A stretch of DNA of 64,000 nucleotides from an uncultured Coxiellaceae bacterium (GCA_947084935.1 CAMTUH010000010.1:4538-68537), one strand, 5' to 3'. Shown: positions 24,315 to 45,843, numbered from the stretch's first letter. The notes: generated by a model not told the origin, from the letters alone. Made by a program: numbers and translations.

Positions 24315-24347
24315 AGGATACACCCAGAACCTTAAGAAAATATTAAG
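24315..24347 (-). promoter_or_regulatory. PmrA-box promoter of icmW
   Basis: Minus strand reads CTTAATATT-TT-CTTAAGG-N9-TATCCT. The -10 ends 26 nt before the icmW ATG. Confidence 0.65.
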
Positions 24348-24431
24348 TAAATGTTAAAATTTCACGAATTCGTGCGGCTTTTAATTTCAAATTAATTTTA
24401 CTCACAAAAAAATCCTTTCTTTTAATTGATC

Positions 24432-24464
24432 CTTAATAATACCTTAAGGAGTGGGTGCTAGCAT
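24432..24464 (+). promoter_or_regulatory. PmrA-box promoter of icmV-dotA
   Basis: CTTAATAAT-AC-CTTAAGG-N9-TAGCAT. The -10 ends 21 nt before the icmV ATG, which has the SD GAGAGGAG. Confidence 0.65.
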
Positions 24465-24485
24465 GATCAAACGAGAGGAGACCCC

Positions 24486-24950
24486 ATGGGCTTTAAAAAT
24501 GTCATGAAGAAGGGCTTGTTTTCGGGGCTGAATCCCATGCGGTGGATCGGTTTCGAGCAAATCGCCGGCAATGCCAAAACGATTAAAAATCTCGCCGACG
24601 GCATTGTCAAAGCTTCCGGTAAAGAAGAATCCCCCACGCATCCCCATTCGTTTGAAGAAGCCATGCAACGTTATGGGTTAAGCGAAGACGATATCAAACA
24701 GCGTATGCGCACGGCCGTGCAAATCAGCGTCATCTGCCTGCTGCTCAGCATTCCAATGATGGGTTACGCGATTTATCTCTTTGTGAAAAACTTTCCCTTG
24801 TCCGCGTTTGTTTGCATTATGTTGACGCTGTTGTTGTGGGCCTACGCGTTTCGCGAACATTTTAATTATTTCCAAATGAAGCAGCGCCGTTTGGGGTGCA
24901 CGTTTAAAGAATGGTTTGTTTACACCGTTAAGGGTAAGGGGTCACGATGA
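24486..24950 (+). CDS. icmV: Dot/Icm inner-membrane protein IcmV
   Basis: 154 aa with two TM helices. Divergent from icmW and 4-nt overlap with dotA, as in known loci. Confidence 0.78.
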   Translation: MGFKNVMKKGLFSGLNPMRWIGFEQIAGNAKTIKNLADGIVKASGKEESPTHPHSFEEAMQRYGLSEDDIKQRMRTAVQISVICLLLSIPMMGYAIYLFVKNFPLSAFVCIMLTLLLWAYAFREHFNYFQMKQRRLGCTFKEWFVYTVKGKGSR

Positions 24951-27331
24951 AAAAAATAGCCGCGGCATTTTCGACACTGTTTTTATGGATTATTTCAAAC
25001 GCAGCCTGGGCGACGGATTTCACCGATAACACCGCGATGAATAATCATCACGATTTATCGATGGCTTATCTCGGTCAGGTGTTTGGTAGCGTCGGCAATG
25101 TGTTGCAGGGCACCAGCGGCCAGATGCTCGGGCATATATTTTATAAATTTAATGAAGGCATCATCATCGTTGCGGGTTTGTGGTTGGCCTACACCGTTTT
25201 CACGATTGTTTTGCGTGCGGCGCAAGAAGGCTCGTTTATGGGAGCCAATAAAAGTGTGGCCTTGACGTTTTTAAGAATTGCTCTGGGTTTTAGTTTATTA
25301 ATTCCCAGTGCATCGACCGGTTATTCGCTGTTGCAAGATATTGTGATGAAAGTCGTGGTGCAAGGTGTTGGGCTTGCGGATCAAACGTGGGAATACGGTT
25401 TAAAATACCTCGATAATGGTGGCAGCGTGTGGCGTCGTCCCGAAGAACAAGGCGGCGGTAGCGATATTATCAATCAAACAACGGCGCAGAATATTTTGGG
25501 GGAAAGCAATAAGGTGGGTCCCGGTCAGCAAATTTTTGCTGATGAAGTGTGCATGTATTCCAGCAACGATAATCAACCTTCGGCGCGTACTTCCGGTGGT
25601 AATATCGGACCTGCCGTGCAAGGAACTCCAGGAGTTCAATACGATATCGTGACGAACGATGCCAATCATTTATTTCAATTTCCGGGCGTGGGTAATGTCG
25701 AACCGTTGGGGCCCGGTGCGAATAATTGCGGACAAGTCTCCTGGGACATTCAGAATGCGTGTACGGGGAGTGGTTCCAATGATACGAAATGTGCGATGGC
25801 CAAACAAGCGTTGAGTGAATTAGTGACGAGTTTACAGCCTGCTGCGAAAAAATATTACTGTTCACAGCACGCCAATGCCGCTTCGTGTACGGGCACGGGT
25901 ACGGAAAATACAGCGAGCGATAACGAAGAAACATTTTTTAATGGGCTAGTTAATTACGTGAATTTGATCGTGCCGTTGGTACAAAGCAACGTGGGTGGTG
26001 CCGAATCCACAAAACAATTTATCAACGAGGCAGAAAACGAAGGCTGGTTGAGCGCGGGTCGCTATTACTGGGATATGGCGCAAATTCAATCGCAATACGA
26101 TTCGATTTCAGACATCACCAATTATTCGCCGGCCAATGCAGTAGCGCCCACTTTGTCGGGTCAACCGTTGTCGGATGCCAATAGTGCGCTTTCAGAAGCA
26201 CAAAGGTACATGCCAACGGTGTTCAGTACCATTCAAAAGTGGAGTCAATCGGAAAACGCCGGTGATACCGGAGGCGGATTTCAACCACAAGGGGGTGGAG
26301 CTGGCTTTGGATTCATGAGCAGCATTTTAGGTGTTGTGGTGGGCGATATTACTGCCCTCATCATAACATTCACTACGGGAAATGGGGGATTGATGGGCCC
26401 GGACCCGATCATGTTCTTACACCACGTAGGAATGGCGTGCATTGGCTTGGCTGGGGATATTTGGCTTGGGTCATTAGGGTTGCTTGCGGGTGTTTTTTTG
26501 GCGGCGGGTATTTGTAATGCGGAATATAATGCGGGGCCGGCTATGCAATCCGTGGTAGAGTGGGTCAAGCCGTTATTAATGGTACTCGCGACGGCATTCT
26601 GGGGCGTGGGATTTGTGTTGGGTTTCTACGTGCCGATGTATCCTTATATTATTTACACGTTTGGTATTATTGGTTGGATTATCGCAGTGATTGAAGCGAT
26701 GGTTGCGGCGCCGTTGGTGTGTTTCGGACTCACCCATCCCGAAGGACACGATTTTCTTGGTGAGGCTAAGCAAGCATTGATGTTATTGCTGGGTGTGTTT
26801 TTACGTCCGGTGCTAATGGTCATCGGGTTGATTGCAGCGATGATTCTGTCTTACGTTTCATTACGGATTGTCGTGTATACGTTTTCGGGGTTCGCGAGTG
26901 ATCTGTTTTATCAAGCATCATTGGGGATGGCGCCTGCTTCCGGTCCAGCGGATGGAAGTATTTTAGGAGCCGCTGGTACGTTGATGGGGCATTCCATGGT
27001 GGGTTCCGGAAGTATCACTGGATTTGTTCTTTGCATTTTCGTTTTTCCATTGACGTTAATTGTTTTTACCGCGCTGGTTTATACGGTGACGACGCAGTGT
27101 TTCAGCCTGATTTTTGCGTTACCCGATAATATCCTTCGTTGGATCGGTGGGCCGATGCATCAAAGCTCGGCTGCACAAATGGCGCAACAAATTCAAGGTA
27201 CTTTGGGCGGCGCAACCAGCAGCGTGGGCAAAGGTATTCAAGAAAGCAGCGCGGCTCAGGACAAACGCGACGAACTCGCCAAGCAATCTCAACTGGTGCG
27301 GAGTCGTGGAGGCCGTGGGCGCACAAATTAA
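24947..27331 (+). CDS. dotA: Dot/Icm polytopic membrane protein DotA
   Basis: 794 aa. Signal/TM at the N-terminus, a large periplasmic domain, then a cluster of C-terminal TM helices. Position after icmV. Confidence 0.82.
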   Translation: MKKIAAAFSTLFLWIISNAAWATDFTDNTAMNNHHDLSMAYLGQVFGSVGNVLQGTSGQMLGHIFYKFNEGIIIVAGLWLAYTVFTIVLRAAQEGSFMGANKSVALTFLRIALGFSLLIPSASTGYSLLQDIVMKVVVQGVGLADQTWEYGLKYLDNGGSVWRRPEEQGGGSDIINQTTAQNILGESNKVGPGQQIFADEVCMYSSNDNQPSARTSGGNIGPAVQGTPGVQYDIVTNDANHLFQFPGVGNVEPLGPGANNCGQVSWDIQNACTGSGSNDTKCAMAKQALSELVTSLQPAAKKYYCSQHANAASCTGTGTENTASDNEETFFNGLVNYVNLIVPLVQSNVGGAESTKQFINEAENEGWLSAGRYYWDMAQIQSQYDSISDITNYSPANAVAPTLSGQPLSDANSALSEAQRYMPTVFSTIQKWSQSENAGDTGGGFQPQGGGAGFGFMSSILGVVVGDITALIITFTTGNGGLMGPDPIMFLHHVGMACIGLAGDIWLGSLGLLAGVFLAAGICNAEYNAGPAMQSVVEWVKPLLMVLATAFWGVGFVLGFYVPMYPYIIYTFGIIGWIIAVIEAMVAAPLVCFGLTHPEGHDFLGEAKQALMLLLGVFLRPVLMVIGLIAAMILSYVSLRIVVYTFSGFASDLFYQASLGMAPASGPADGSILGAAGTLMGHSMVGSGSITGFVLCIFVFPLTLIVFTALVYTVTTQCFSLIFALPDNILRWIGGPMHQSSAAQMAQQIQGTLGGATSSVGKGIQESSAAQDKRDELAKQSQLVRSRGGRGRTN

Positions 27332-28659
27332 TTCGTAACCAACAACGCCAACGGCAAGGCAAGGAATAGGATACTTAAAAATATCAAGGCGGGGAAAAAG
27401 AAAACGTTGAGCAACGCCACGCCACCGACCAAATAGATCACCAACATCAACGCGGAAAATTGGCTGATTTTAACGATAAATCGATCGAAAGGACGATATT
27501 TAAGGGCACCCCCTTTCGGAATCATCATTTGCGTCAACCACGCGAATGTGTGTCGAGGAGCGATAATCGTTAATAAGCCGAACAATCCTAACACGGAAAC
27601 GATCATCGCGATCCAATGCGGTATTTCGTGGATTGTGTGCGACGACACCCAGAAACACAATAAATAAAAAACCAAGGGCAGTGCACAGGTAGCCAGAATA
27701 ATGGCGCGTAGGGAGTAACCTCGCGATAAACGCGCAATGAATAGACCCGCTACCGGCATCCAACTCAGCCACCACAAAATAGCAAATAATTGCCAATTCA
27801 ACAGCGCTCCCGGTTTCAACAGCGCGAAAAGAAAATGGGGCGTGTTAAACTTCATAGAAAAACCGGTCCCAAAAAACAGCGCCAAAACAATCACGATAAA
27901 TGCTAAAAACACGAACAATCCAAACAGAGCGGTAATCGGTGACAAATCGTATCGGGTTATTAAGTGGTGACTTTGCCGTTTTATGAATTTAGAACTCATG
28001 AAAAAAAGCACCAAGCATGAGAAAATCAAACCAGCAAAATGGGTTTCTTTTAGCGCATTCATATTCGTCGGCGCCAGCGTGGATGCAATCAACAGCGTGA
28101 TCAGAGCAATCGTCGAGCTCAGCGCAAACATCATGGCGGCGCGCGTCGTCGTGTTCACGATTAACGAAAACGGTTTATCCGGTACGGCATTCGGAAAAAA
28201 AGTATTCGCCATCAACGTATTGTGGTCGCGACGAAACCCCAAATACCCGAGGGCACTGGCAATCAGCGCCACTCCAACCCACGGAAAAAGCCCCCTCGTT
28301 AATAAAGTATGTGCGATCGTGTTGCTGAATAAAGGCGGTTTTACGTCAGTAAAAACAGGGAGCGTGTTCCCCGAAAGCACGCAAATTCCCCAGAAAACCG
28401 CGAATAAACTGAGTTCTAGAATAAAAATTTGTGACAGCCATTGTACGGGATTTAGAACCGTCATTCCGTCAGGGATCTTCAATTTTTTATTACCCAATGG
28501 TGAGAAAATCACAACGGCTGCTCCGATGACCCACAGCCAATACCCGTGATAGCTCCAAACGACTTGTGTCATGAAATTTAAAAGCAGAACCAGGCTGATG
28601 ATTATCGAAACGATAACCATAAAAAATAATAATCTAAGTTGTGGCTTTAATAATTTCAT
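27328..28659 (-). CDS. polytopic inner-membrane protein, 443 aa, unknown function
   Basis: About 12 hydrophobic helices. Convergent 4-nt overlap with the dotA stop. Weak BCCT-like flavour (GLFPWVGVALIASALGYLGFRR), not secure. Confidence 0.55.
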   Translation of the reverse strand: MKLLKPQLRLLFFMVIVSIIISLVLLLNFMTQVVWSYHGYWLWVIGAAVVIFSPLGNKKLKIPDGMTVLNPVQWLSQIFILELSLFAVFWGICVLSGNTLPVFTDVKPPLFSNTIAHTLLTRGLFPWVGVALIASALGYLGFRRDHNTLMANTFFPNAVPDKPFSLIVNTTTRAAMMFALSSTIALITLLIASTLAPTNMNALKETHFAGLIFSCLVLFFMSSKFIKRQSHHLITRYDLSPITALFGLFVFLAFIVIVLALFFGTGFSMKFNTPHFLFALLKPGALLNWQLFAILWWLSWMPVAGLFIARLSRGYSLRAIILATCALPLVFYLLCFWVSSHTIHEIPHWIAMIVSVLGLFGLLTIIAPRHTFAWLTQMMIPKGGALKYRPFDRFIVKISQFSALMLVIYLVGGVALLNVFFFPALIFLSILFLALPLALLVTN

Positions 28660-28691
28660 ATTTTACCCATGACAATTGCACTCAAGTGTAG

Positions 28692-28787
28692 CGACGTCCC
28701 GCGGCCCCGGATCGAGTCCGGGGCAAGCTTTTTTGTCCGCGGGATCCAGCGAGTTTCTGGATGCCGCGAACAAGTCGCGGCACGTCG
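28692..28787. repeat. GC-rich REP-like element with an outer stem and two internal hairpins
   Basis: Outer IR CGACGTCCCGCG / CGCGGCACGTCG (11/12). Hairpins CCCCGGA-TCGAG-TCCGGGG (28705..28723) and CGCGGGATCCAG..CTGGATGCCGCG (28738..28768). Lies between the dotB stop and the start of the 443-aa gene. Confidence 0.6.
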
Positions 28788-28821
28788 AAAAGATATAGTT
28801 AAGTGCGATTGCCATGGTATT

Positions 28822-29991
28822 TTACCGAGCATTCATCGATTGATATTTCGCCTGTGCGGATAAAATTTTATACGTGCGTTCTGAAATCAACCCGGCTTGG
28901 TATTTGTGTTCAACATCAACGTGCATGAGTTGCCCGTGTTCCTCGACGAGGCGACGCGTGACGGCCGTGACTTTGTCGGGGTCGGCTTCGAGCAACTGAT
29001 CGCGGATTTTTTCGTTGAACACCAAAAATTCTCTTAATGCCACGCGTCTGCCGTCGACCGATGGAACCAAACGCTGCCAGATCACCAAGCGCATCGTTTC
29101 AATAATGTCGATGGTGCGGCCGATGCGTTCTTCTTTCGGAAAACTGCCAACCAGTCGTCGAATCGTTTCTGCAACGCCGTTGCTGTGTAACGTAGTATAA
29201 ACCGGATGGCCGGTTAATGCAGCTTCTAACACGGCAGAAATAGTCTCGTTGTCGCGCGCTTCACCGACTAAAATTAAATGCGGTTTGCGGCGAAGCGCGT
29301 TTCGAACGCCTGCAGCAAACGAGGGTAAATGCCGCGGAATTTCCGATTGAGAAATCGTGGCGGTCGGTGTTTCGAGCGAATCGTACACGTATTCGATGGG
29401 CGCTTCGTAAGTGAGTATTTTGCGGTTGCTGTTCGGATCTTCTGCAAGCTCTTTTACCATCGCCGCGAGTAAAGTGCTTTTCCCTGAACCCGTGGCGCCC
29501 GTGACGTAAATCACGCCTTCTTGCGGTGCAATTGCATCGACAATCGCTTTTGGCAATTCTAATTTTGATAAAGAAGGCGGTTCTGCGGGAATGGTTCGAA
29601 TGGTAATTTGAATACCTTCCTGACCGTCCACGTGACAGCCGGTACCATTTACCCGGTGTCGAAACCGTTCATTGCGATTGGGGCGTACTTCGTAGTGCGT
29701 GTCTAAATCTACGCCGCGCATAATTTGCGTGGTGCCATTCGGTCCGTAAATCGCGTTGAGTAAGTCGCCGACTTCGGCATTAGATAATTCGCGTCGCGTG
29801 ATTTTTTGAATGCGCCCGTACACTTCGGCGATAATGGGCGATCCCGTTTGAATCGTGATATCCGATGCCCCTAATTGGTGGCAATACACGAGCAAATGAT
29901 CGATGTGCTTCGCTTCAAAGCGCGCAGGTTCCTTCGGATAAAAATCGTCGCTCAATGACTCAACGCTCCATTCGTCAGCACCGGCTTCCAT
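28822..29991 (-). CDS. dotB: Dot/Icm ATPase DotB (PilT/VirB11 family)
   Basis: Walker A GATGSGKST, Walker B-like LILVGEARD, His box TGHPVYTTLH. 389 aa. Confidence 0.9.
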   Translation of the reverse strand: MEAGADEWSVESLSDDFYPKEPARFEAKHIDHLLVYCHQLGASDITIQTGSPIIAEVYGRIQKITRRELSNAEVGDLLNAIYGPNGTTQIMRGVDLDTHYEVRPNRNERFRHRVNGTGCHVDGQEGIQITIRTIPAEPPSLSKLELPKAIVDAIAPQEGVIYVTGATGSGKSTLLAAMVKELAEDPNSNRKILTYEAPIEYVYDSLETPTATISQSEIPRHLPSFAAGVRNALRRKPHLILVGEARDNETISAVLEAALTGHPVYTTLHSNGVAETIRRLVGSFPKEERIGRTIDIIETMRLVIWQRLVPSVDGRRVALREFLVFNEKIRDQLLEADPDKVTAVTRRLVEEHGQLMHVDVEHKYQAGLISERTYKILSAQAKYQSMNAR

Positions 29992-30761
29992 TGATTACTG
30001 TTGGGTTGCAGAGCCGAAGCTGCGGTAATACGCATGATTTCATCGTTAATGCGAATTTGATCCGCATTTCCGGTAACGCCGAGATCGGCCTTCGAAACGA
30101 TCGGCGAAGTAATAATGCCTTCTGACAGTAATTTGCGGTATAAAATCATACCCAAATAATCGCGTTTTAATCGATTTAAATCCGCCTCAAAGATGTCGTT
30201 GGCTTGTTGAAGGCCGTCTTTCCAGCCACTTTGCAAATAGAAATTCCAGACTTGCGCTTCATCTTGATTTACTGGAAGCAGCGTATTATCGGGAACGTCG
30301 GGTTTTTTGAAATTCAGCCACAAATAATTACGCCACGTGGGAGGCGCGGTGACAAAACGAGCCGGGGCAACGATTTTGTAAGTTTTATCCGCCATGCGAA
30401 TGGTGTTACCGTCGTCTAAATTCAAATTACCGTTGGACTCAACGATGACGGGTGGCACGACATTGTGTTTTAACAATAATTGATTGAAATCGAAAACTTG
30501 ATCCATATACGTGGCTTGTTGTTTCAGGGCGCTGTTGATGTGTTCGGCGCGCCACGCTAAAGCGCCGCGAGCGCCGAGTGTGGTTGCCGTTTCACGCAGT
30601 GCTTGCATGCGAATGGGATTAATTAGACCGTTTCCCGTGGGCAATTGATTGATGTTGACGTAACCCAGTTCGGCCATTGGCGCCGATCCCGCGGAAGAAT
30701 TCGCGGCGCAACCCGTTGCTAAGCAAGCCGCGATCAGAATAATGCAAATGGTTTTTCCCAC
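29952..30761 (-). CDS. dotC: Dot/Icm outer-membrane lipoprotein DotC
   Basis: Lipobox LATGC. Collinear blocks with Legionella DotC (LGARGALAWRAEHIN, FNQLLLKHNVVPPV). Confidence 0.85.
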   Translation of the reverse strand: MGKTICIILIAACLATGCAANSSAGSAPMAELGYVNINQLPTGNGLINPIRMQALRETATTLGARGALAWRAEHINSALKQQATYMDQVFDFNQLLLKHNVVPPVIVESNGNLNLDDGNTIRMADKTYKIVAPARFVTAPPTWRNYLWLNFKKPDVPDNTLLPVNQDEAQVWNFYLQSGWKDGLQQANDIFEADLNRLKRDYLGMILYRKLLSEGIITSPIVSKADLGVTGNADQIRINDEIMRITAASALQPNSNQWKPVLTNGALSH

Positions 30762-30770
30762 GCTGACCTC

Positions 30771-31274
30771 TTAACTCGAGTAATAACGCAACTCAATCGT
30801 TCGAGTGGCCGGATAAAGCGTGATATTCGCTTTATTTTCCACTTGGAACGTAGCGTTACGCAAAATATCCGCAAGCGGAACATTGTTCGCATTAATGGCC
30901 ACGATTACCGGAATGGGCGGTTTGTCGCCCAGCACGCGTAAACGGTAATGGCTGGCTTGCGCGATTTTTTTTAGTAACGGCTCAATGGGTCCCGTCCAAT
31001 CCAGTGAAGTTTGTTGCGCCATGCCGATGAGATCGGGATTCAACGGCTCGGCTAATTTCGCTTTCGGATGAGTCGCCAATTGGATGGCGGCGATTTGTTG
31101 TAACGAATGGCCGACGTCCACGGAAGCTTCGGACAGCTGGGCCTGAGCGTTAACGTCGGTTGCTTGGACCGGAGCGCTGTCGGTGGTGATGTACGAATAG
31201 GTTAACTTTTTATGGACGGTACAGCCGGCGAGGATACAGAACAGGGGTATAAGCCACAAGTGTTTTATTTTCAT
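30771..31274 (-). CDS. dotD: Dot/Icm outer-membrane lipoprotein DotD
   Basis: Lipobox ILAGC, 167 aa, first gene of the dotD-dotC-dotB operon. Confidence 0.85.
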   Translation of the reverse strand: MKIKHLWLIPLFCILAGCTVHKKLTYSYITTDSAPVQATDVNAQAQLSEASVDVGHSLQQIAAIQLATHPKAKLAEPLNPDLIGMAQQTSLDWTGPIEPLLKKIAQASHYRLRVLGDKPPIPVIVAINANNVPLADILRNATFQVENKANITLYPATRTIELRYYSS

Positions 31275-31355
31275 AGTCTTGCGATCGCTTGGTATGATAA
31301 CGGTGTTGCAACAAGGTCCTACCCTTTAGTGACCGATCCGTGGCTTATGCGGATC

Positions 31356-31388
31356 ATTCTACGACAGTAACCTTAAGAGAATATTAAG
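31356..31388 (-). promoter_or_regulatory. PmrA-box promoter of dotD-dotC-dotB
   Basis: Minus strand reads CTTAATATT-CT-CTTAAGG-N9-TAGAAT. The -10 ends 81 nt upstream of the dotD ATG. Confidence 0.65.
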
Positions 31389-31436
31389 AAATATCCGTTT
31401 GCTTACCGCGGCACATTTACTTACACTTGCCTCTTT

Positions 31437-32438
31437 TTGATACAAACCGAAGTGAGAAGGCCTGTGGATGAGAAAGAAGTGGGTAATTATCTGCACGGAG
31501 TCGCTAGAGAAATCGCCAGGGAGAGGTCTTCATGGAATGGTCCGAAAGAACTAGGGTTAAAAAATAGAATAAGACAGGAGTTGCTTAATAAAGGGATTAC
31601 ATACCCGGATTTTAAGCGCATTAGTGAAATTCTGGGCGAGCGCTGCGGTAAAGTGGCGGCAAAAGCCGTGAAACGCCTGCGTAGTATATTGAGTTCTTTA
31701 GCCGAGGAGTTGAAGGCAAAAACTCAGAAACGGCCATTTGGCGACGAGGTATGGGAACCTGCTGAAGGTGGACCACCAGCAAAAAGACGAGCGTATGGTC
31801 CGCTGGCCATTACCACAGAGCTGTCAAACACCTTTTCGGAACATTCAGAGCATCTTAACGAGAAAGATGCTCAATTGGTGGATCAACTTTTGGGTGCGAT
31901 GGAGGAACTCAAAGATGGCACAAAGGTAATGGAGCTTCTTCCCTTCTTGGGTTCAGAAAATTCAGAAATAGGCTTGACCCCTGAGCAAGCCGGTACTTTA
32001 TTACAGAATTTAGATGATATGGGAAAAGACTTCGCGGATCCTGATAATATATTTCGCAATTGGCTCAGGACTTTTCTTCCGAAAGAAAACCCTATCTCTT
32101 CTCACACGGATTTACCACAACCTACTTTTGATATGCAGGGGGAGGTATTACCAACATTTGAATTTGCTTCGATGGAAGAGGTCGTCGCTTTTGCAAATGC
32201 ACTCTCAACTCCCGATAAAATAATCACTCGGGTGGACGAAAAACCCACCCGTGCTGCAACCACAGCTGCCACAACTACAGTTAACGTTGAAGTCAGAGCC
32301 CCGTCACCGGCGGGTTCGCTTTATGTTGGGGCCGGCAGCGTTTTTTCGTCTGGAAGTCGTTCTACTGTCAGTATTAGTTCGTGCGAAGAAAAAGGCCCAG
32401 AAACTCAAAAAGAAGGGTCTCGTAGTCCAAAACGTTAG
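31437..32438 (+). CDS. hypothetical protein, about 333 aa; candidate Dot/Icm substrate
   Basis: Long ORF with no TM segment or signal peptide. Acidic, low-complexity C-terminal third ending in a Ser/Glu-rich tail (..SSGSRSTVSISSCEEKGPETQKEGSRSPKR). Start codon uncertain (TTG at 31437 or internal GTGs). Confidence 0.5.
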   Translation: MIQTEVRRPVDEKEVGNYLHGVAREIARERSSWNGPKELGLKNRIRQELLNKGITYPDFKRISEILGERCGKVAAKAVKRLRSILSSLAEELKAKTQKRPFGDEVWEPAEGGPPAKRRAYGPLAITTELSNTFSEHSEHLNEKDAQLVDQLLGAMEELKDGTKVMELLPFLGSENSEIGLTPEQAGTLLQNLDDMGKDFADPDNIFRNWLRTFLPKENPISSHTDLPQPTFDMQGEVLPTFEFASMEEVVAFANALSTPDKIITRVDEKPTRAATTAATTTVNVEVRAPSPAGSLYVGAGSVFSSGSRSTVSISSCEEKGPETQKEGSRSPKR

Positions 32439-32472
32439 TCATACATCAACTCATCCAAAGATACCGTGTCTG
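32436..32472. repeat. 37-bp duplicate of the icmS 3' end (direct repeat of 33868..33904)
   Basis: TAGTCATACATCAACTCATCCAAAGA[T/C]ACCG[T/C]GTCT. The minus strand of this copy would encode ..TVSLDELMYD* versus the genuine icmS ..DAVSLDELMYD*. Confidence 0.8.
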
Positions 32473-32535
32473 GGCTATAGGCGGTTCAGCATTCCCGGCG
32501 AACCGCCCCCAGAGCCTATCTGGGTCAGCATTTAT

Positions 32536-32616
32536 AATAACGATTGGACGCACTTGCAATAACGATTGGACGCTACTAGAATAACGATTAGACGAGAACC
32601 TAATCACGATTGGACG
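32536..32616 (+). repeat. four direct repeats with an exact 22-bp period (AATAACGATTGGACG core)
   Basis: Cores start at 32536, 32558, 32580 and 32602 (variants AATAACGATTAGACG and AATCACGATTGGACG). The last ends 1 nt before the ATG at 32617. Confidence 0.8.
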
Positions 32617-33858
32617 ATGATGGCTGACACCCATTTTAAGCGCTATTCTGCTCGCAAGGTGCAAGAAGCCTTACAGGATACCCCGGTCGTATTCATTATG
32701 GGCCCTAGGCAAAGTGGCAAAACCACCTTAGTAAAGTCATTAATCACGAATCGCTGGGAATACATAACCTTGGATGATCAGGCTCAGTTGGCTATTGCGG
32801 CTGCTGATCCGGTGGGTTTTATAAAAAACTTGCCCGAAAAACCCATAGCCATTGATGAAATCCAGCGGTTGCCCCAAATGCTGCTGAGCATTAAACAAGT
32901 GGTTGATGAAAATCGCATGCCCGGACGATTTTTATTAACGGGATCTGCCAATGCGCTTGTGTTTCCCCAAGTAGCTGACTCCTTAGCGGGTAGGGTAGAG
33001 GCAATACATTTGAATACGCTTTCTGAATGTGAAATTCGAGGTGTGTCGCCCTCTTTTCTATCCATGCTACTGGCTTGCAAGACCCCTTCAGCAAGTGAAA
33101 TTAGGATTAGAGATTATTTGATTAAACGTCTCGTGACAGGCTGTTTCCCCGAGCCCTTACAAAGGAAAACCGAGCGCCGAATTAAAGCGTGGTACAGACA
33201 ATATATCAATTCTTTAATCCAAAAAGACATTAAAGAAATTGAGCAAATTGATCACCCTGAAAAGATGTTAAAATTACTTAAACTCACTGCCTTTTATTCA
33301 AGTAAGCTGGTTAATTTTTCAGAATTAGGAGATAAAGTAGGTTTAGATCGATTAACCACGAAAAAATACATTAATCTTCTTGAACAACTATTTTTATTGA
33401 AACAATTGCCGGCTTGGCATACCAATGAATATAAAAGATTAGTAAAAACGCCTAAATTACATTTAGTGGATACCGGTTTGATTTGTGCGGCCCGAGATAT
33501 CAACAGTGAGTTTCTGTTGCGCCATCCAAAAGAATTGGGCTTTTTATTGGAATCTTTCGTTTATAACGAATTGCAAAAACAAGCGGATTGGTTGGAAGAA
33601 GATATCTTTTTTTACCATTATCGCGATAAGGACAAAAAAGAGGTTGATATCATCATAGAGAATGCACGCGGAGATTGTTTTGCCATTGAGATAAAAGCAG
33701 CGGCTACGTTAAGTTCGAGTGATTTTTCGGGTCTTACACGTTTTCGAGAGATCGCTGGGAAGCGATTTAAGTTTGGTATACTGCTGTATGATGGAGATCA
33801 GACTACCGCGTTTAGTGACGACGTGTTTGCCGTACCTTTTGGTGCGCTGTGGTCGTAA
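32617..33858 (+). CDS. AAA+ ATPase of the AAA_14/DUF4143 family
   Basis: Walker A GPRQSGKTTL, Walker B PIAIDEIQ, sensor LLTGSA. The C-terminal half fits DUF4143 (KLHLVDTGL.., restriction-endonuclease-like tail EVDIIIE). ATG at 32617 preferred over the ORF-track TTG at 32566. Confidence 0.78.
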   Translation: MMADTHFKRYSARKVQEALQDTPVVFIMGPRQSGKTTLVKSLITNRWEYITLDDQAQLAIAAADPVGFIKNLPEKPIAIDEIQRLPQMLLSIKQVVDENRMPGRFLLTGSANALVFPQVADSLAGRVEAIHLNTLSECEIRGVSPSFLSMLLACKTPSASEIRIRDYLIKRLVTGCFPEPLQRKTERRIKAWYRQYINSLIQKDIKEIEQIDHPEKMLKLLKLTAFYSSKLVNFSELGDKVGLDRLTTKKYINLLEQLFLLKQLPAWHTNEYKRLVKTPKLHLVDTGLICAARDINSEFLLRHPKELGFLLESFVYNELQKQADWLEEDIFFYHYRDKDKKEVDIIIENARGDCFAIEIKAAATLSSSDFSGLTRFREIAGKRFKFGILLYDGDQTTAFSDDVFAVPFGALWS

Positions 33859-33866
33859 ATATCGGA

Positions 33867-34205
33867 CTAGTCATACATCAACTCATCCAAAGACACCGCG
33901 TCTTTGGATGAGCTGTTTTTGACGAGTTCATTGACGACGTCGAGAATACAAAATAACCGCAAAATATCCGGCGTGAATTGATCGAATTTCACTTTCACAC
34001 CAAGCAGAGATTTTTCAACGTCTTCGTAGGTGGCGCCTAATCCGTATCCTAAACACAGTGAAGCCAATTGATCCGCCCGCTTGGTAAGGCCAGGCAATAA
34101 TCCGGTTTCAGAAAACATTTCCGTGTGCGTGATGGGGCGGCCTTTTAAGGTAAAGGTAGCGCCGAGTTCTTTGGCCATGGCCGCGAGTTTTGTCCCGATA
34201 TCCAT
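33867..34205 (-). CDS. icmS: Dot/Icm chaperone/adaptor IcmS
   Basis: FSETGLLPGLTKRADQLASLCLGYGLGATYED ... LDELMYD* is near-collinear with Legionella IcmS. Confidence 0.92.
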   Translation of the reverse strand: MDIGTKLAAMAKELGATFTLKGRPITHTEMFSETGLLPGLTKRADQLASLCLGYGLGATYEDVEKSLLGVKVKFDQFTPDILRLFCILDVVNELVKNSSSKDAVSLDELMYD

Positions 34206-34463
34206 TTAGGTATCCCACCACGGGACGGCGATTTTACGCCGTCCCGCAATTAAGTTGCGAAACCACCGAAAAAAAACTTCAATGCTAAAACCATAGCGGT
34301 TAAGAATGGTGAAAAACAGCATGGCAACGACCGCCACGATGAGTGTCCACCAACGAATATGCAGTAAAAACAATAACATTGGGAATGCCGTTTTACCGTC
34401 CCAAATGAAAAATTTGACCGGCCGTGCCGAATCGCGCCAGTGTGCTTCGTTGAGTGGTTTCAT
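34206..34463 (-). CDS. icmT: Dot/Icm inner-membrane protein IcmT
   Basis: AHWRDSARP..F..D...AFP.LLFLLHI.WWT.IVAV..MLFFT.LNRYGF.....FRW.RN..AG.RK.A.PWW matches IcmT. Confidence 0.92.
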   Translation of the reverse strand: MKPLNEAHWRDSARPVKFFIWDGKTAFPMLLFLLHIRWWTLIVAVVAMLFFTILNRYGFSIEVFFRWFRNLIAGRRKIAVPWWDT

Positions 34464-34472
34464 AGAGGTTTA

Positions 34473-34505
34473 ATTCTATGGGCAAAACCTTAAGAAAGTA
34501 TTAAA
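34473..34505 (-). promoter_or_regulatory. PmrA-box promoter of icmT-icmS
   Basis: Minus strand reads TTTAATACT-TT-CTTAAGG-N9-TAGAAT. Only 9 nt separate the -10 from the icmT ATG. Confidence 0.6.
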
Positions 34506-34520
34506 TAATGCAATATTTAT

Positions 34521-34553
34521 GTTAATGTTTCCTTAAGCTTCGTATCGTAGAAT
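34521..34553 (+). promoter_or_regulatory. PmrA-box promoter of the icmQ operon
   Basis: GTTAATGTT-TC-CTTAAGC-N9-TAGAAT. The -10 ends 30 nt before the ATG at 34584. Confidence 0.6.
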
Positions 34554-34558
34554 GGGTT

Positions 34559-34576: not shown

Positions 34577-34583
34577 ACCTATT

Positions 34584-34730
34584 ATGCGCACAGAACCCGA
34601 TACAATTAAACAAGCGTGTAACGATTTTTCGCAGCTGTTATCCTCCGTTTTAGAGGACGTTACGAATCATTGCGATCAGAACAACAATTCGATCAAAATG
34701 ATCAAATCTCTCGGAGGCGGGCACCCGTGA
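34584..34730 (+). CDS. small ORF (48 aa) immediately upstream of icmQ; candidate IcmR-type (FIR) partner
   Basis: ATG with SD AAGGA at 6-nt spacing. MRTEPDTIKQACNDFSQLLSSVLEDVTNHCDQNNNSIKMIKSLGGGHP. Its TGA overlaps a GTG (GTGA) that has its own GGAGG SD 9 nt upstream. Confidence 0.3.
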   Translation: MRTEPDTIKQACNDFSQLLSSVLEDVTNHCDQNNNSIKMIKSLGGGHP

Positions 34731-35440
34731 CCTTCCCATTATCCACTGCACACGTTGATTTAAAAAACGAAGAATTAAAGCGTCGTTTGATGGAATGCGT
34801 CAATGAGGAAAAGAATAGTTTCTTGCCTCTGGCTGAAAAATTTTATCAAACCCGAAAACGCAGCGATACTGATTATCATCAATTGTGCACCGCGATTATT
34901 GCCGCGGTCGATCACGTGTTAAATGCGGGCGAGTGGGATTCGTCTTTATTTCTACGCAGCACGCTAAAACCGCTCAAAGAAATCCGCGAGCACGCGTTGA
35001 AATTGCTGGAAAATTTAAGCGGCGCACAAACACCTGCCAAATACACATCGCCAACGCTGTCTGAGAATTTTGTTAAATTATATATTTCCTTGTATCAAGC
35101 CGCCGGGCACGATCTTAATTTGTGGGCGGCGCAACTGGCATCGATTTCCAGCTACACGATTGGCCGTCCGGTTTATGAATCGGAAGAAAATGTCGTTCAG
35201 TCCATTCGTCGAAAGTTGTCTCAAGTATCTGAGGCCTACATCGTGGTTTCCGTGGATAAATCGAAAATTTTAGGCGTCGATAATTTTCGTCCGCGCAAAG
35301 ATCGATTCGGGAACACCTTAGTCAGCTTGTTGCCGAATGCGGTTTGCAGCGAAGACATTCTTGAATTTGTTCATCTGGAAAAGCGTTATTATTTTTCCCA
35401 CGGGAATTTATTACCAATAAATAACGAGGTCGCCGCGTAA
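34727..35440 (+). CDS. icmQ: Dot/Icm protein IcmQ
   Basis: AGEWDSSLFLRSTLKPLKEIREHALKLL parallels Legionella IcmQ GPWDKSNFLRVIGKKLIAIRDRF. GTG at 34727 (SD GGAGG) preferred over the ORF-track TTG at 34670. Confidence 0.75.
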   Translation: MTFPLSTAHVDLKNEELKRRLMECVNEEKNSFLPLAEKFYQTRKRSDTDYHQLCTAIIAAVDHVLNAGEWDSSLFLRSTLKPLKEIREHALKLLENLSGAQTPAKYTSPTLSENFVKLYISLYQAAGHDLNLWAAQLASISSYTIGRPVYESEENVVQSIRRKLSQVSEAYIVVSVDKSKILGVDNFRPRKDRFGNTLVSLLPNAVCSEDILEFVHLEKRYYFSHGNLLPINNEVAA

Positions 35441-38946: not shown

Positions 38947-39030
38947 AAAATTTTGGGTATTAGCCTTAAGAGGTCGTTAAATTAAAGCAAGGAGAAATTA
39001 TCAATGGATTGATAAACATGATGAGTAAAA

Positions 39031-40205: not shown

Positions 40206-40206
40206 T

Positions 40207-40881
40207 ATGGCAAAACCCAATGAAGGACTAAAATTAATTATCCTACGAAACGCGTTTTATCGTGATAATTACCGGCGCGCACTCATTGCTGCGCTGTTGG
40301 TTTTTGTATTTAATTGCGTTTTGGTGGGCTTGATTTTTTATCAGTGGGAAAATCCCCCGCCGCCGGAATATTTTGCGACAACGGCGGACGGAAGAATTAT
40401 TATGCTGCATCCGTTAAGCGATCCGGTGTTGCCCGATGACTTCGTTTTGCAGTGGGCCACGAATTCCGTTCATAAAGCTTTTAGCTTGGACTACGTGCAT
40501 TGGCGTGAACAGTTGCAAGACGCTTCTAATAATTTTACACCGGATGGTTGGAAGTGGTTTTTAAACAGTTTAAAGAGCACGAATAATTTAAAAACTTTAA
40601 CCGATTTAAAAATGGTTTCGGATGCAACCGTAACCGGATCTCCTCAGGTTCAGGAAAAAGCGGTTATTGACGGCCATTTTGCCTGGAAGATAACGATGCC
40701 AATTTTAGTCGCGTACACGAGTGAAGGGCACAACATCAACATGCCCATGAACGTGACGTTGATTGTTATTCGTATGCCGGTGCAAGATTATCCGCAACGA
40801 ATTGCCATCAATAATTTTTTGGCGCAAACGATTAGTACGAATGCGTTGGGTGATCAATTGTCGGGTAATCCGAATGAGTAG
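40207..40881 (+). CDS. icmL.2: Dot/Icm inner-membrane protein IcmL/DotI (paralog 2)
   Basis: ATG at 40207 (MAKPNEGLK..) lies 1 nt after the previous stop, so the ORF-track start at 40090 is an upstream read-through. Same family blocks as above. Confidence 0.85.
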   Translation: MAKPNEGLKLIILRNAFYRDNYRRALIAALLVFVFNCVLVGLIFYQWENPPPPEYFATTADGRIIMLHPLSDPVLPDDFVLQWATNSVHKAFSLDYVHWREQLQDASNNFTPDGWKWFLNSLKSTNNLKTLTDLKMVSDATVTGSPQVQEKAVIDGHFAWKITMPILVAYTSEGHNINMPMNVTLIVIRMPVQDYPQRIAINNFLAQTISTNALGDQLSGNPNE

Positions 40882-40897
40882 GGTAGGGTTGAATAAT

Positions 40898-41887
40898 ATG
40901 AAAATACGAAAAATAGTCATGTGCATCGTTTTTATTAGTTTGAGCGCGAGCGGTGCGTCGATATTTGCCGATACTGGCTATGGCATTCAAACCAACAATC
41001 AACAAACCTCGATCAATGCATTACTGCAAAAAGCGCAAACGAATGTTGCGCAAAATACGAGTCAAACTAATAATTCTAATTCAGCAAATTCGCAAAGTGC
41101 ATCGAATTCAAACCCGAGCACCGGGCTTGGTGATGATGCTTTTGCAAACACGGTACGCAACATGATGCCGTTGTCGCCCGACCAAATTCGCACCTTGCGT
41201 TATTTATTCGATCAAAGTCAACGAGCGGCTTCAACGGATCCGGGAGTGCCGCCGAAACCGACGTCGACGTCGGTGATCGTTAATTTATCGCCAGGAGCAA
41301 CGCCGCCCGTCATTCGTTTGTCGGCGGGATTTGTGACTTCCTTGGTTTTTGTGGATTCCACGGGAGCGCCATGGCCGATTCAAGCGTACGATTTGGGTGA
41401 TCCGCAAACGTTTAACGTCGAATGGGATAAAGTTGGCAACACGTTATTGGTGCAGGCGCTTCGACGGTACACGTCCGGTAATTTGGCGGTGATCTTAAAA
41501 GGATTGGATACGCCTGTCATGGTGACGTTATTGCCCGGACAAGATGCCGTGGATTACCGCGTGGATTTACGTGTTCCCGGTGTTGGGCCTAACGCGAATC
41601 CCGTTTTGGATGGGCTTCCCAATACCGAAAGCCCGGAATTACTCAATGTGTTAAATGGGATACCGCCGCAAGGCAGTCAACAAGTCACCGTGACCGGTGG
41701 AGATTGCGATGCGTGGGTATTAAACGGAAATCTCTTTTTGCGAACGCGTCTTACGGTTTTATCGCCGGCCTGGATTTCGACGATGAGCAGCGCGGACGGC
41801 ACCAACGCATACGAATTGCAAACGACGCCGGTTATACTCGCGTCGCAACGCGGCAAATTAGTTAAATTGACGATTGAAGGGTTGTAA
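40898..41887 (+). CDS. icmK: Dot/Icm outer-membrane core protein IcmK/DotH
   Basis: ATG at 40898 yields a signal peptide (MKIRKIVMCIVFISLSASGASIFA). About 329 aa. Position between icmL and icmE. Confidence 0.85.
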   Translation: MKIRKIVMCIVFISLSASGASIFADTGYGIQTNNQQTSINALLQKAQTNVAQNTSQTNNSNSANSQSASNSNPSTGLGDDAFANTVRNMMPLSPDQIRTLRYLFDQSQRAASTDPGVPPKPTSTSVIVNLSPGATPPVIRLSAGFVTSLVFVDSTGAPWPIQAYDLGDPQTFNVEWDKVGNTLLVQALRRYTSGNLAVILKGLDTPVMVTLLPGQDAVDYRVDLRVPGVGPNANPVLDGLPNTESPELLNVLNGIPPQGSQQVTVTGGDCDAWVLNGNLFLRTRLTVLSPAWISTMSSADGTNAYELQTTPVILASQRGKLVKLTIEGL

Positions 41888-41889
41888 TT

Positions 41890-44538
41890 ATGATAGAGCA
41901 TCCGAAAAATTTTTTACAGAACGCTAAATTTCGTGTCATAGCCGCCATTGTTGCGTTAGTGGTAGTAGTCGTTGTTGTGATCGCGGTGTGGCATCGCCAC
42001 GAAGTGAACAGCGCGTTTAAGAGTTCGTCTTCCGTCGCCGCGAGTCCGGCTATTCAATCGCTGCCGGGTGCGGGAAATCCGACGAACGCCTACGTGCAAA
42101 CACAAAATATTCAAAATGCAGAACAAGCACAACAAGCGCGAAAAGACGCGACGAGTTTCGTTCCAACGATGACGCGCCAAGGTTTTGTGGGGTCACCTGA
42201 GTCGTTTGAACAAGATAATTCAATACCCGATGCGGTGCAGAAAAAATTGCAGTGCCCGATTAAGAAAGTAGTTTATATGTATAAACCCAATCCCGCGAGT
42301 TGCACGGTGGACAACTTAAGATTGGCGAGAAGTGCGGGTGTTACGGCCGAAGAATTGCTGTGCCAATCGTGTTCGTGTCCGGCTTTGCGCGTAGCGGGAT
42401 ATACGGTGGGTGAACTCAAAGACGTCGGTTATTCCGCGACGGATTTACGCCAATGCGGTTATTCTTTGTCGGAATTAAAAGCATCTGGGTTTTCCGCAGC
42501 CGATTTAAAGGCAGCAGGATTCACCGCGCAACAGTTACACGACGCGGGATTTTCTGCAGGAGAACTAGCGGCCGCTGGATTTACTCCCGATCAAATTCGA
42601 GCGGGGGGATATTCACAAGCCGAGTTGCAAGCCGCCGGTGTTCGATCCGTCAGTACCGATTGCAGCGTGGATGCGCTTAAGAAAGCGCGCGCCAACGGCG
42701 TGACAGCTGCGGAGTTGAAACAGGAAGGTTGTGGCTTAGCGGCGTTAAAAACTGCGGGTTACAGCGCAGCCGAGTTGAAATCGGCGGGCTTTACGGCAGC
42801 GGAATTAAAATCCGCTGGATTCAGTGCAAAAGATTTGAAAGCCGCGGGTTTCAGCGCGAGCGATCTTGCCAATGCAGGATTCAGCATAGCGGATTTGAAA
42901 GCAGCCGGATATTCACCGGAAGAAATCAGAGCCGCTCAGTTAGCTTCAAAAGTGTGTAACGTGGGGGGGCTTAAAAAGGCCCGCGCGGCGGGCGTTTCCG
43001 CAACCGAATTAAAAGAAAAAGGTTGTGGTTTGGCAGCGTTAAAAGCAGCGGGTTATACCGCGGCTGAGTTAAAGAACGCGGGTTTTTCCGCAGCGGATTT
43101 AAAGGCGGCAGGATTCACTGCGCAGGATTTGAAAGACGCGGGATTTTCAGCATCGCAATTAAAAGCGGCTGGATTCAGTGCGCAAGATCTGAAAAATGCG
43201 GGCTACAGTGCAAGCGATCTTGCGAATGCAGGATTCAGTGCGGCGGATTTGAAAAACGCGGGGTTCAGTGCGAAAGACCTCAAGGAGGCCGGATTCAGTG
43301 CGGACGCATTGAAAGACGCTGGATTTAGCGCTAAAGACTTAAAAGACGCGGGCTTTTCTGCATCGCAATTAAAGGCAGCTGGATTCAGTGCCGGCGATTT
43401 AAAATCTGCAGGATTTTCGGCGGCGCAATTGAAGTCCGCGGGATATTCGGCGCAGCAATTACACGACGCAGGGTTCAGTGCCGCGGATTTAAAAACAGCA
43501 GGATTCACGGCGGATCAATTGCGAAACGCCGGTTACACCAAGGGTGATTTGCTGCGGGCGGGATATACGCCGAAAGAAGCGGGTTACAATCCTGCGCCGC
43601 CGGCGCAAGCAGCACAAACCGTGCAACCGACGTTGTCTGTCAATAATTTGGAAAATACGCAGCCTAATAACGCGAACTCGGATGCAAGCGCCGCTATGCC
43701 ATCGATCAACAGTAATTCGGCGGCACAACGGTTGCAGGAAATTCAGCGGCTGCAACAGGAGCAACTCAACGCGCAACAACGTCGAGACATGATGCAACAA
43801 ATGCAAGGACAAATGAGCATGCAGGCGCAAAAACTCATGGCGGAATGGAGTAACAACAACGCGCAAGCGTATGAGGTTGCCGTGCAGCAACCCGAACAAA
43901 ATACACTGGGAGGTAGTACGACCAATGCGGCTCAATCGGCGGCTGTTGCAAAAGCCACCGGACCGACGATTAAAGCGGGAACCGTTTTATTTGCGGTGCT
44001 GGATACCTCGGTAAACAGCGATGAGAAAAGTCCGATTCTCGCTACGATCGTGACGGGAAACCTCAAGGGGGCGAAACTCATTGGAAATTTCGATCGGGTC
44101 GATAAAAAAGTATTGATGCGATTTAACTTGATGAACGTACCGGATTTCGATCATTCGTTGGGCGTCAATGCGGTCGCGATCGATCCTAATACGGCACGAA
44201 CGGCAATCTCCGGCTACGTGAATAATCATTATTTATTGCGTTATGGAACTTTGTTTGCCTCGGCATTTTTGTCGGGACTTTCGCAAGGGATTATTCAATC
44301 GGGCGCCACGCAGGATTGCTTTTTAGGTTTCTGTCACACCACGTATCAGAAACTCTCGCCAGGACAATACGTAGCGATTGGTATGGGCAACGTCGGTCAG
44401 CAGTATGCCACTACCATGGGACAAAATTTCAATGTTCCACCGACGATTAAAGTTTCCGGCGGAACGGGCATCGGCTTGTTATTCATGACCGATGTCACTT
44501 TACCGGAACCCATACCAACGAAAAATTTAAATTCATAA
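41890..44538 (+). CDS. icmE: Dot/Icm core protein IcmE/DotG
   Basis: 882 aa. N-terminal TM helix, a long array of 10-residue AGFSAxDLKx repeats, and a C-terminal VirB10-like domain. Confidence 0.92.
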   Translation: MIEHPKNFLQNAKFRVIAAIVALVVVVVVVIAVWHRHEVNSAFKSSSSVAASPAIQSLPGAGNPTNAYVQTQNIQNAEQAQQARKDATSFVPTMTRQGFVGSPESFEQDNSIPDAVQKKLQCPIKKVVYMYKPNPASCTVDNLRLARSAGVTAEELLCQSCSCPALRVAGYTVGELKDVGYSATDLRQCGYSLSELKASGFSAADLKAAGFTAQQLHDAGFSAGELAAAGFTPDQIRAGGYSQAELQAAGVRSVSTDCSVDALKKARANGVTAAELKQEGCGLAALKTAGYSAAELKSAGFTAAELKSAGFSAKDLKAAGFSASDLANAGFSIADLKAAGYSPEEIRAAQLASKVCNVGGLKKARAAGVSATELKEKGCGLAALKAAGYTAAELKNAGFSAADLKAAGFTAQDLKDAGFSASQLKAAGFSAQDLKNAGYSASDLANAGFSAADLKNAGFSAKDLKEAGFSADALKDAGFSAKDLKDAGFSASQLKAAGFSAGDLKSAGFSAAQLKSAGYSAQQLHDAGFSAADLKTAGFTADQLRNAGYTKGDLLRAGYTPKEAGYNPAPPAQAAQTVQPTLSVNNLENTQPNNANSDASAAMPSINSNSAAQRLQEIQRLQQEQLNAQQRRDMMQQMQGQMSMQAQKLMAEWSNNNAQAYEVAVQQPEQNTLGGSTTNAAQSAAVAKATGPTIKAGTVLFAVLDTSVNSDEKSPILATIVTGNLKGAKLIGNFDRVDKKVLMRFNLMNVPDFDHSLGVNAVAIDPNTARTAISGYVNNHYLLRYGTLFASAFLSGLSQGIIQSGATQDCFLGFCHTTYQKLSPGQYVAIGMGNVGQQYATTMGQNFNVPPTIKVSGGTGIGLLFMTDVTLPEPIPTKNLNS
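42331..43590 (+). repeat. coding tandem repeat inside icmE: about 38 units of 30 nt (AGF/YSAxxLKx)
   Basis: Visible 30-nt periodicity. Explains the many spurious ORFs on both strands here. Confidence 0.9.
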
Positions 44539-44556
44539 TTAAAGGGGCAGTTATCC

Positions 44557-45276
44557 ATGAATACGAAAGATAAAAAAATATCGGGTGATGAAGAATATCA
44601 GTACCCAAACGAAGAATACGTGACTGAAACCACACCGCCGGAGGAGCAGCCAGTGCACGACAAGCAGCCGAACTTTTTTATTCGGTTGATGCAAAACAAT
44701 AAACGCGTGACCGTTGTGATTGTGCTTATTTTTGTTGCGCTGATCGGGTTTAAATTATTCGGTTCGCGTAAACCGACGATGTCGATCAAACCGGCTGCTC
44801 AACCCCTTGTTCCTCAACCCACGATGGTTCAGCCGAGCCCTGAATTCGTGAATCAATTGAGTAGCTTGAAACAAGACGAGCAAAGCAACCAGTCGAGTCT
44901 TGGTCAATTGCAGGGTCAAATTCAAGATCTGCGTAATCAACTGGGTCAGACAACCACGCAGCAGGCGCAAGTCAGTCAAGCCATGATGGCCATGGTGCAA
45001 CAAATAAAACAATTGGAGCAAGACGTGCAAGCGGTGACGGCTAAACACGGCGCGGCGCCAAAGAAAGTGAGACCAACTCCGCCGCCGATGGTGTTTCATC
45101 TGCGCGCCATCGTACCGGGGCGGGCGTGGATTATCAGTAACGACGGTTTGTCGGAATCGGTTTCCGAAGGTGATACCGTTCCACAATACGGTACGGTGCA
45201 GGTGGTGGATGCCAATCGCGGTATGGTGTTGACGAGTTCAGGCAAGGTGATTGGCTACGGGCCGAACGATCGATAA
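44557..45276 (+). CDS. icmG: Dot/Icm protein IcmG/DotF
   Basis: 239 aa with a single TM helix (VTVVIVLIFVALIGF) and a Q-rich coiled-coil periplasmic region. Synteny. Confidence 0.8.
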   Translation: MNTKDKKISGDEEYQYPNEEYVTETTPPEEQPVHDKQPNFFIRLMQNNKRVTVVIVLIFVALIGFKLFGSRKPTMSIKPAAQPLVPQPTMVQPSPEFVNQLSSLKQDEQSNQSSLGQLQGQIQDLRNQLGQTTTQQAQVSQAMMAMVQQIKQLEQDVQAVTAKHGAAPKKVRPTPPPMVFHLRAIVPGRAWIISNDGLSESVSEGDTVPQYGTVQVVDANRGMVLTSSGKVIGYGPNDR

Positions 45277-45281
45277 GGTGA

Positions 45282-45797
45282 GTGATGAGTTTTGGAGTTG
45301 ATCCTAATCTCTTAATGCAAAACTTAGGAACGATTGCGAATATCGTTCAGTCGGTCACCGTTTTGATGGGGGTAGGGCTCTTCATGATGGGTATTTTCCG
45401 CTTGAAACGGTACGGGGAAATGCGAACCTTTATGTCCCATCAAATGACCATCGCCTCACCGTTATTGATGATGTTTGGCGGGATTGCATTGCTCTGCCTC
45501 CCACTCGTTTTACGTACGGCTTTATTGAATTTTTGGTCGACGAGCAACCCCCTTCATTACGAAGGACCTTTGTCTTCGTGGGAGCTTTTAATCCCCCCTA
45601 TTATCGTCTTCGTTCGTTTGATTGGAGTGGGTGCCTTCATTAGGGGTGTCCTTTTGTTTTCCCGATGTGGGAGCGAGCAGGGGCATCAGGGCATGATGGG
45701 CCGAGCCCTACTGCATATTTTGGGGGGTATGTTGTGCGTCCATATTTTGGGAACCGTGCGATTGTTAAAGGAAATCCTGGGGTTCACTGTTTCTTAA
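45282..45797 (+). CDS. icmC: Dot/Icm inner-membrane protein IcmC/DotE
   Basis: 171 aa with four hydrophobic helices. Synteny between icmG and icmD. Confidence 0.78.
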   Translation: MMSFGVDPNLLMQNLGTIANIVQSVTVLMGVGLFMMGIFRLKRYGEMRTFMSHQMTIASPLLMMFGGIALLCLPLVLRTALLNFWSTSNPLHYEGPLSSWELLIPPIIVFVRLIGVGAFIRGVLLFSRCGSEQGHQGMMGRALLHILGGMLCVHILGTVRLLKEILGFTVS

Positions 45798-45810
45798 GAT
45801 TTTTTTGGAC

Positions 45811-45843
45811 TTTAATATTTCCTTAAGGTTTAAACGTTATATT
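45811..45843 (+). promoter_or_regulatory. PmrA-box promoter of icmD-icmJ-icmB
   Basis: TTTAATATT-TC-CTTAAGG-N9-TATATT. Confidence 0.65.

Follow-up and report, generated by a model that had tools for sequence, protein, structure and literature searches.

The Dot/Icm locus of an uncultured Coxiellaceae bacterium, which codes for a type IVB secretion system (T4BSS), raises the question of what the six short and closely similar DNA sites preceding its operons do, and which protein of the bacterium reads them. The locus lies within the 64-kb stretch of DNA analysed here, referred to below as the window, and the genome assembly from which it comes comprises 1.74 Mb in 14 contigs, has a G+C content of 46.4% and is 94.5% complete. 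The six sites are very probably PmrA-type promoters of class II, which use sigma-70 and depend on an activator, placed under the control of the PmrA/PmrB pair encoded in the same genome.

Each of the sites is 33 nt long and is built of a direct repeat, YTTAAT-N5-CTTAAG, with a period of 11 bp, followed after exactly 9 nt by a -10 hexamer of the TAnnnT type. The pattern TTAAT-NNT-NN-CTTAAG-N10-TANNNT is found exactly six times in the window, at 24315-24346 (-), 24433-24464 (+), 31356-31387 (-), 34473-34504 (-), 34522-34553 (+), and 45812-45843 (+), against a mean of 0 and a maximum of 0 in 100 dinucleotide-preserving shuffles. An earlier note on this DNA had reported six such sites; all of them were recovered at the same places and on the same strands, with oriented sequences identical letter for letter, and the Dot/Icm gene names given there agree with both NCBIfam and Pfam. 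According to these two databases, the window carries, from left to right, icmX, a 149-aa open reading frame (ORF) and icmW on the minus strand, icmV-dotA on the plus strand, a BCCT-like gene with dotB, dotC, and dotD (minus), two unrelated genes (plus), icmS-icmT (minus), icmQ, P, O, N, L.1, L.2, K, E, G, and C (plus), and finally icmD, J, and B (plus). Every box points at the first gene of a Dot/Icm unit, and the first start codon is located 9 to 81 nt past the -10 at all six sites. The earlier claim that every operon start of the locus carries a box holds for the six Dot/Icm operons, but not for the two embedded non-Dot/Icm genes (31437-33858, +), a 333-aa orphan starting at 31437 and an AAA_14/DUF4143 ATPase gene at 32566, which have no PmrA box of their own.

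The box stands where a -35 element would be expected, and its distance to the -10 is rigid, in line with the earlier description. In the region 16-18 nt upstream of the -10, agreement of the six promoters with TTGACA is limited to 0-3 of 6 positions, usually 1, and a scan with the sigma-70 consensus called none of the six. Spacing was assessed on boxes found with a box-only matrix, the -10 being ignored and the gap counted from box position 18. In this genome TAnnnT lies at exactly 9 nt in 19 of 35 boxes and at 8 or 10 nt in none; in 54 related loci it lies at 9 nt in 89 of 108 boxes, with a single case each at 8 and 10 nt, and the TTAA cores are invariant across the 89 related sites. If transcription starts 7 nt past the -10, the box would occupy about -39 to -22, which is the class II layout that PhoB is known to have and that a model gives for Klebsiella PmrA (PMC4660055).

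The motif is clearly separated from background in the whole genome. A neutral, literature-style box, YTTAAK-NNTNN-YTTAAK, defined without the -10, occurs 29 times, compared with 5 in the reversed-sequence control, and 25 of the 29 (86%) are intergenic, while a crude ORF map counts ~9% of the genome as intergenic (binomial p about 1e-22). The box is therefore far from being as frequent in coding DNA as between genes, an outcome in favour of the promoter reading that the earlier note had put forward. Moreover, three boxes assigned to coding DNA have a -10 at 9 nt, and since an ORF start is found 27-45 nt downstream of each, these placements are probably errors of the crude map. The box-only matrix derived from the six sites gives 18 genome matches at 20 bits or more and 1 in the reversed control. 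The PmrA matrix published for Legionella pneumophila (Burstein et al. 2009, Table S5) was built independently of these sites and comprises 33 positions, with the repeats at 1-9 and 12-20 and the -10 at 28-33. On this matrix the six sites score from 18.1 (icmV) to 29.0 (dotD) bits of a possible 35.6, and the resemblance to the tandem repeat of Legionella and Coxiella recognised in the earlier note extends to the entire 33-position layout of the L. pneumophila effector element. At a threshold of 18 bits the same matrix finds 53 matches in the genome, 47 of them intergenic, and 3 in the reversed control.

Three full OmpR-family regulators are encoded in the genome. One of them forms, together with a 477-aa histidine kinase encoded just after it, a PmrA/PmrB-type pair on contig C4 (227072-229182); the search for pmrAB proposed by the earlier note, which had regarded a lack of a PmrA ortholog as a reason to drop its claim, thus ended with an adjacent gene pair. 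The best NCBIfam families of the C4 regulator are PmrA and QseB, its kinase matches QseC and PmrB, and its closest solved relatives are the Klebsiella PmrA/BasR structures, the DNA complex included. Its score falls short of the equivalog cut-off that NCBIfam sets for enteric PmrA (241 vs 330 bits). In the Klebsiella PmrA-DNA complex bases are read by N188, V192, H195, N196, and R210, and also by T187 (PMC4660055). The first five residues are identical in the alignment with the C4 regulator, while T187 is replaced by S, and this conservation of the recognition residues supports, indirectly, the predicted binding of the boxes by PmrA. Autoregulation of pmrA was considered and rejected, as no tandem box is present in the 350 nt upstream of the gene.

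The arrangement is conserved in orthologous positions. The nearest named relative of the bacterium is Candidatus Paracoxiella cheracis (82% identity of IcmW and 92% of PmrA), the other relatives being Coxiellaceae metagenome-assembled genomes (MAGs). In most of the 54 related loci icmW and the divergently oriented icmV are preceded by this box and, 9 nt past it, the -10; these loci include those of Paracoxiella cheracis, Coxiella mudrowiae CRt, a tick-symbiont Coxiella, and dozens of MAGs. Sorted by the downstream gene, the boxes of the related loci precede icmW in 34 cases, icmV in 29, dotD in 14, icmQ in 7, and icmT in 1, with only 8 located elsewhere, and the spacer bases at the conserved boxes vary freely between the relatives. 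The strict CTTAAG pattern is present in 55 of 64 genomes of the family, with 556 matches against 1 in the control; neither the eight genomes of genus g11, 0.6-1.2 Mb in size, nor the one genome that represents genus g14 has it. Nearly all genomes with the box and an intact icmW carry a PmrA ortholog of 73-92% identity. In the reduced g11 genomes both PmrA and IcmW are missing or broken and pseudogenised, and the box is absent too. This joint loss agrees with the loss of the T4BSS and PmrAB reported for tick endosymbionts (PMC8290121). A literature search on the conservation of the box across Coxiellaceae brought nothing explicit.

Taken together with what is known of related regulators, these features would fit the following mode of action. 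Each promoter has a usable -10 and no -35, and in place of the latter there are two direct YTTAAK hexamers, which are offset by 11 bp and thus lie on one face of the helix. PmrA, a winged-helix protein of the OmpR/PhoB family, would bind the hexamers head to tail as a phosphorylated dimer and recruit RNA polymerase through region 4 of sigma; recruitment of this kind has been modelled for Klebsiella PmrA and demonstrated for PhoB. The contact between the protein and the polymerase would be set by the gap to the -10, invariably 9 nt. On receiving its inducing signal, the PmrB kinase would in this way switch on the six Dot/Icm operons at once, and with them some 40 further promoters, many of which precede orphan or eukaryote-like genes for candidate effectors.

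Other explanations of the six sites have to be weighed against this one. The boxes could be real and yet bound by another OmpR-family protein without any participation of PmrA; the genome does encode two further regulators of this family, OmpR/CpxR-like and located on contig C2, and the gene for one of the two is itself preceded by a strong box. This is nevertheless very improbable, as YTTAAK with the N5 spacing is the PmrA/BasR box (PMC3973317), while the published CpxR matrix describes a different motif with GTAAA-type repeats, and only the C4 protein combines PmrA/QseB as the best family, Klebsiella PmrA as the best structure, and an almost identical recognition helix; besides, it is the C4 ortholog that vanishes together with the box from the reduced genomes. 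We see equally little likelihood of PmrA acting as a repressor that occludes the promoters and keeps the operons switched off. OmpR/PhoB regulators can repress from positions overlapping the region that RNA polymerase must contact, which is where the box lies, but promoters of this kind, because they have no -35, should be weak unless activated, and their geometry is of the PhoB/PmrA activation type (PMC4660055). In C. burnetii, moreover, the PmrAB regulon is described as up-regulating Dot/Icm genes, and pmrA mutants lose translocation (PMC7104363, PMC4117601), which likewise speaks for activation.

Even less credence is due to the view that the sites are promoters for an alternative sigma factor with CTTAAG as the -35, a chance AT-rich likeness, or copies of a dispersed repeat, although AT-rich intergenic DNA does yield TTAA-rich strings and a rigid layout of two blocks would also fit sigma-factor promoters. 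The end of the proximal hexamer is separated from the -10 by 10 nt and that of the distal hexamer by 21 nt, and since neither distance fits a -35/-10 spacer, neither hexamer can serve as a -35. Chance resemblance and a dispersed repeat were rejected on the basis of the shuffled and reversed-sequence controls, which gave 0-5 matches compared with 29-53 observed, and the sites do not represent a mobile repeat, because flanks and spacer differ between the copies. Some observations do weigh against control by PmrA/PmrB. That the box, PmrA, and IcmW occur together lends support without amounting to statistical proof, because the genomes are related and hence are not independent observations; the two additional OmpR-family regulators belong on the same side of the balance. 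Several strong boxes, among them those before leuS, a DUF520 gene, and the OmpR-like regulator gene, have no -10 at 9 nt; they may be chance matches or reflect a different working mode, and it follows that not every box need be an activated promoter. Activation by PmrA nonetheless accounts best for the six Dot/Icm sites, which makes the locus a real but ordinary further example of a circuit known from C. burnetii and Legionella, with no new mechanism.

The six promoters differ in their -10 hexamers, in their scores on the published PmrA matrix, and in the transcripts they are predicted to drive. The icmW promoter (24315..24347, -) consists of CTTAAT-N5-CTTAAGG, 9 nt, and the -10 TATCCT, scores 26.9 bits, and would drive icmW, the 149-aa ORF, and icmX (24288..22240) from a predicted transcription start near 24308. 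A third half-site in phase with the repeat, TTTAAC (24348..24358, -), is found 11 bp upstream of this box, giving a series of three repeats, TTTAAC-N5-CTTAAT-N5-CTTAAG (24330-24358); the TTTAAC/CTTAAT pair is itself an overlapping box match of 14.5 bits (24341-24358, -). On the other strand, the icmV promoter (24432..24464, +) has the -10 TAGCAT, extended by TGn, and is predicted to serve icmV-dotA (24486..27331); at 18.1 bits it is the weakest of the six. The highest score, 29.0 bits, belongs to the dotD promoter (31356..31388, -), with the -10 TAGAAT, which would drive dotD-dotC-dotB (31274..28822). The gene for a BCCT-family transporter-like protein (27328-28659, -) follows dotB after 162 nt on the same strand and may be co-transcribed with dotDCB.

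The icmT and icmQ-side boxes are situated back to back, with a 15-nt gap between them. The icmT promoter (34473..34505, -; -10 TAGAAT; 23.8 bits) would drive icmT-icmS (34463..33867). The ATG of icmT lies only 9 nt past the -10 (34461-34478, -), and because of this the icmT mRNA is likely to be leaderless or nearly so; in a relative, locus L031, the homology to icmT also starts about 11-14 nt past the -10. In the opposite direction, the icmQ-side promoter (34521..34553, +; 25.0 bits), in which the proximal repeat reads CTTAAGC and the -10 TAGAAT, is predicted to drive icmQ-P-O-N-L.1-L.2-K-E-G-C (to 45797) together with a small ORF that comes first (34584..34730). The small ORF (34584-34730, +) codes for 48 aa, is preceded by a Shine-Dalgarno sequence, and starts 30 nt past the -10. 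The icmQ ORF itself is 256 aa long (34670-35440, +), with a match to the IcmQ family only from residue 75 onwards, and in the relatives the homology to icmQ begins 214-297 nt past the -10. The 48-aa ORF with its Shine-Dalgarno sequence, the late IcmQ match, and the long distance in the relatives together suggest a small, non-conserved gene ahead of icmQ, perhaps coding for an icmR-like partner. The last of the six, the icmD promoter (45811..45843, +; -10 TATATT; 26.5 bits), would drive icmD-icmJ-icmB (45902..49962). Another candidate box in the window, located before an F-box gene (61614-61631, -), reaches only 10.5 bits, has no -10 at 9 nt, is not convincing, and was not counted.

The proximal half-site CTTAAG was described in the earlier note as a local variant of the consensus. 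It does depart from the Legionella matrix, in which position 17 is T with a frequency of 0.65 and G with 0.19, and position 18 is A with 0.5 (Burstein et al. 2009, Table S5), both positions being G here. It is not local, however: with a pattern neutral at the last base, the proximal half-site ends in G at 79 of 84 Dot/Icm promoters of related genomes, and the other promoters in the same related loci are divided between G and T (7 vs 6). CTTAAGG, judged from these counts, looks like the form conserved at the promoters of the secretion apparatus throughout the family. Strict matches with a TTAAT-type proximal site number 877 in the family (about 22 in the control), as against 556 of the CTTAAG type, the latter including the apparatus promoters; the corresponding figures are 7 and 10 in the genome studied here, and 24 and 10 in a 2.0-Mb, two-contig genome of the genus Coxiella, presumably C. 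burnetii. It is conceivable, if rather doubtful, that in Coxiellaceae the apparatus promoters are held to a distal YTTAAT and a proximal CTTAAGG, most of the remaining regulon using TTAAT at the proximal site, with two tiers of affinity or activation as a possible result. If so, genes for the apparatus and for the effectors would respond at different levels of phosphorylated PmrA.

The closest known counterpart is C. burnetii, in which five dot/icm operons are preceded by PmrA sites and effectors are no longer translocated once pmrA or pmrB is mutated (PMC4117601), the PmrAB regulon responding to lysosomal amino acids (PMC7104363). The Coxiella consensus, cTTAA-N2-TT-N2-cTTAA, lies directly upstream of the -10 (bioRxiv 10.1101/679134). 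The two bacteria share this consensus, the position of the box next to the -10, the PmrA/PmrB type of regulators, and the targets, that is, most dot/icm operons together with dozens of other genes, as well as a single Dot/Icm locus of the Coxiella-type arrangement with two copies of icmL. They differ in the number of boxed dot/icm operons, five reported for C. burnetii (PMC4117601) and six found here. In three Legionella-like loci examined no comparable box was found upstream of icmW, the best scores being up to 9.4 bits. In Legionella it is chiefly the effector genes, and less the operons of the apparatus, that PmrA drives.

The enterobacterial PmrA box pairs two CTTAAG/xTTAAT-type hexamers across a 5-bp spacer, as in pbgP, where it reads CTTAAT-ATTAT-CCTAAG (PMC3973317). 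The Coxiellaceae sites resemble those of PmrA/BasR from Salmonella and Klebsiella (pbgP/arn; PDB 4S04, 4S05, 8JO2) in the half-site, in the N5 spacing, and in the order of the half-sites, the distal one ending in T and the proximal one in G; the base-contacting residues of the recognition helix and the wing are also conserved, as is the position of the activator over the -35 region. The regulons are different, that of enterics comprising lipid A modification genes, and the one described here the T4BSS and candidate effectors. Control of lipid A modification genes (arn/pbgP, eptA) is not seen here: in the window the boxes precede Dot/Icm operons, and a single candidate envelope gene, coding for a DUF3413-sulfatase protein, is boxed.

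Genome-wide, about 45-50 promoters fit the matrix, many of them located before orphan or eukaryote-like genes; a scan of the kind suggested in the earlier note has yielded a list of the putative regulon, with candidate effector genes by sequence included. Outside the window, the genes behind well-formed boxes are mostly orphans with no Pfam match. Other boxed genes code for a eukaryote-like Ser/Thr kinase, a leucine-rich repeat (LRR) protein, a GNAT acetyltransferase, a PAP2 phosphatase, and the DUF3413-sulfatase membrane protein mentioned above. The genes for the kinase (466 aa, C3:190625-192089, -) and the LRR protein (493 aa, C12:12896-14446, -) are each situated behind a PmrA-type promoter, and their products are putative effectors. 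The composition of the boxed gene set, as far as predicted functions tell, is the profile expected of a PmrA regulon with effector candidates. Two paralogous orphans of 387 and 378 aa, 3 kb apart, are preceded by nearly identical PmrA-type promoters (C12:46741-46773 and C12:49707-49739, both +). A box of 23.8 bits (C2:94911-94928, -) lies 35 nt upstream of the OmpR-like regulator and kinase pair on contig C2, with no TAnnnT at 9 nt; it could reflect cross-regulation between two-component systems.

For the family as a whole, these results indicate that the wiring of Dot/Icm to PmrAB described in C. burnetii is an ancestral trait of the Coxiella family which almost all its members have kept, whereas the reduced genomes of tick symbionts have lost both this wiring and the secretion system. 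For uncultured relatives, the box offers an inexpensive and specific way to compile lists of candidate secreted effectors.

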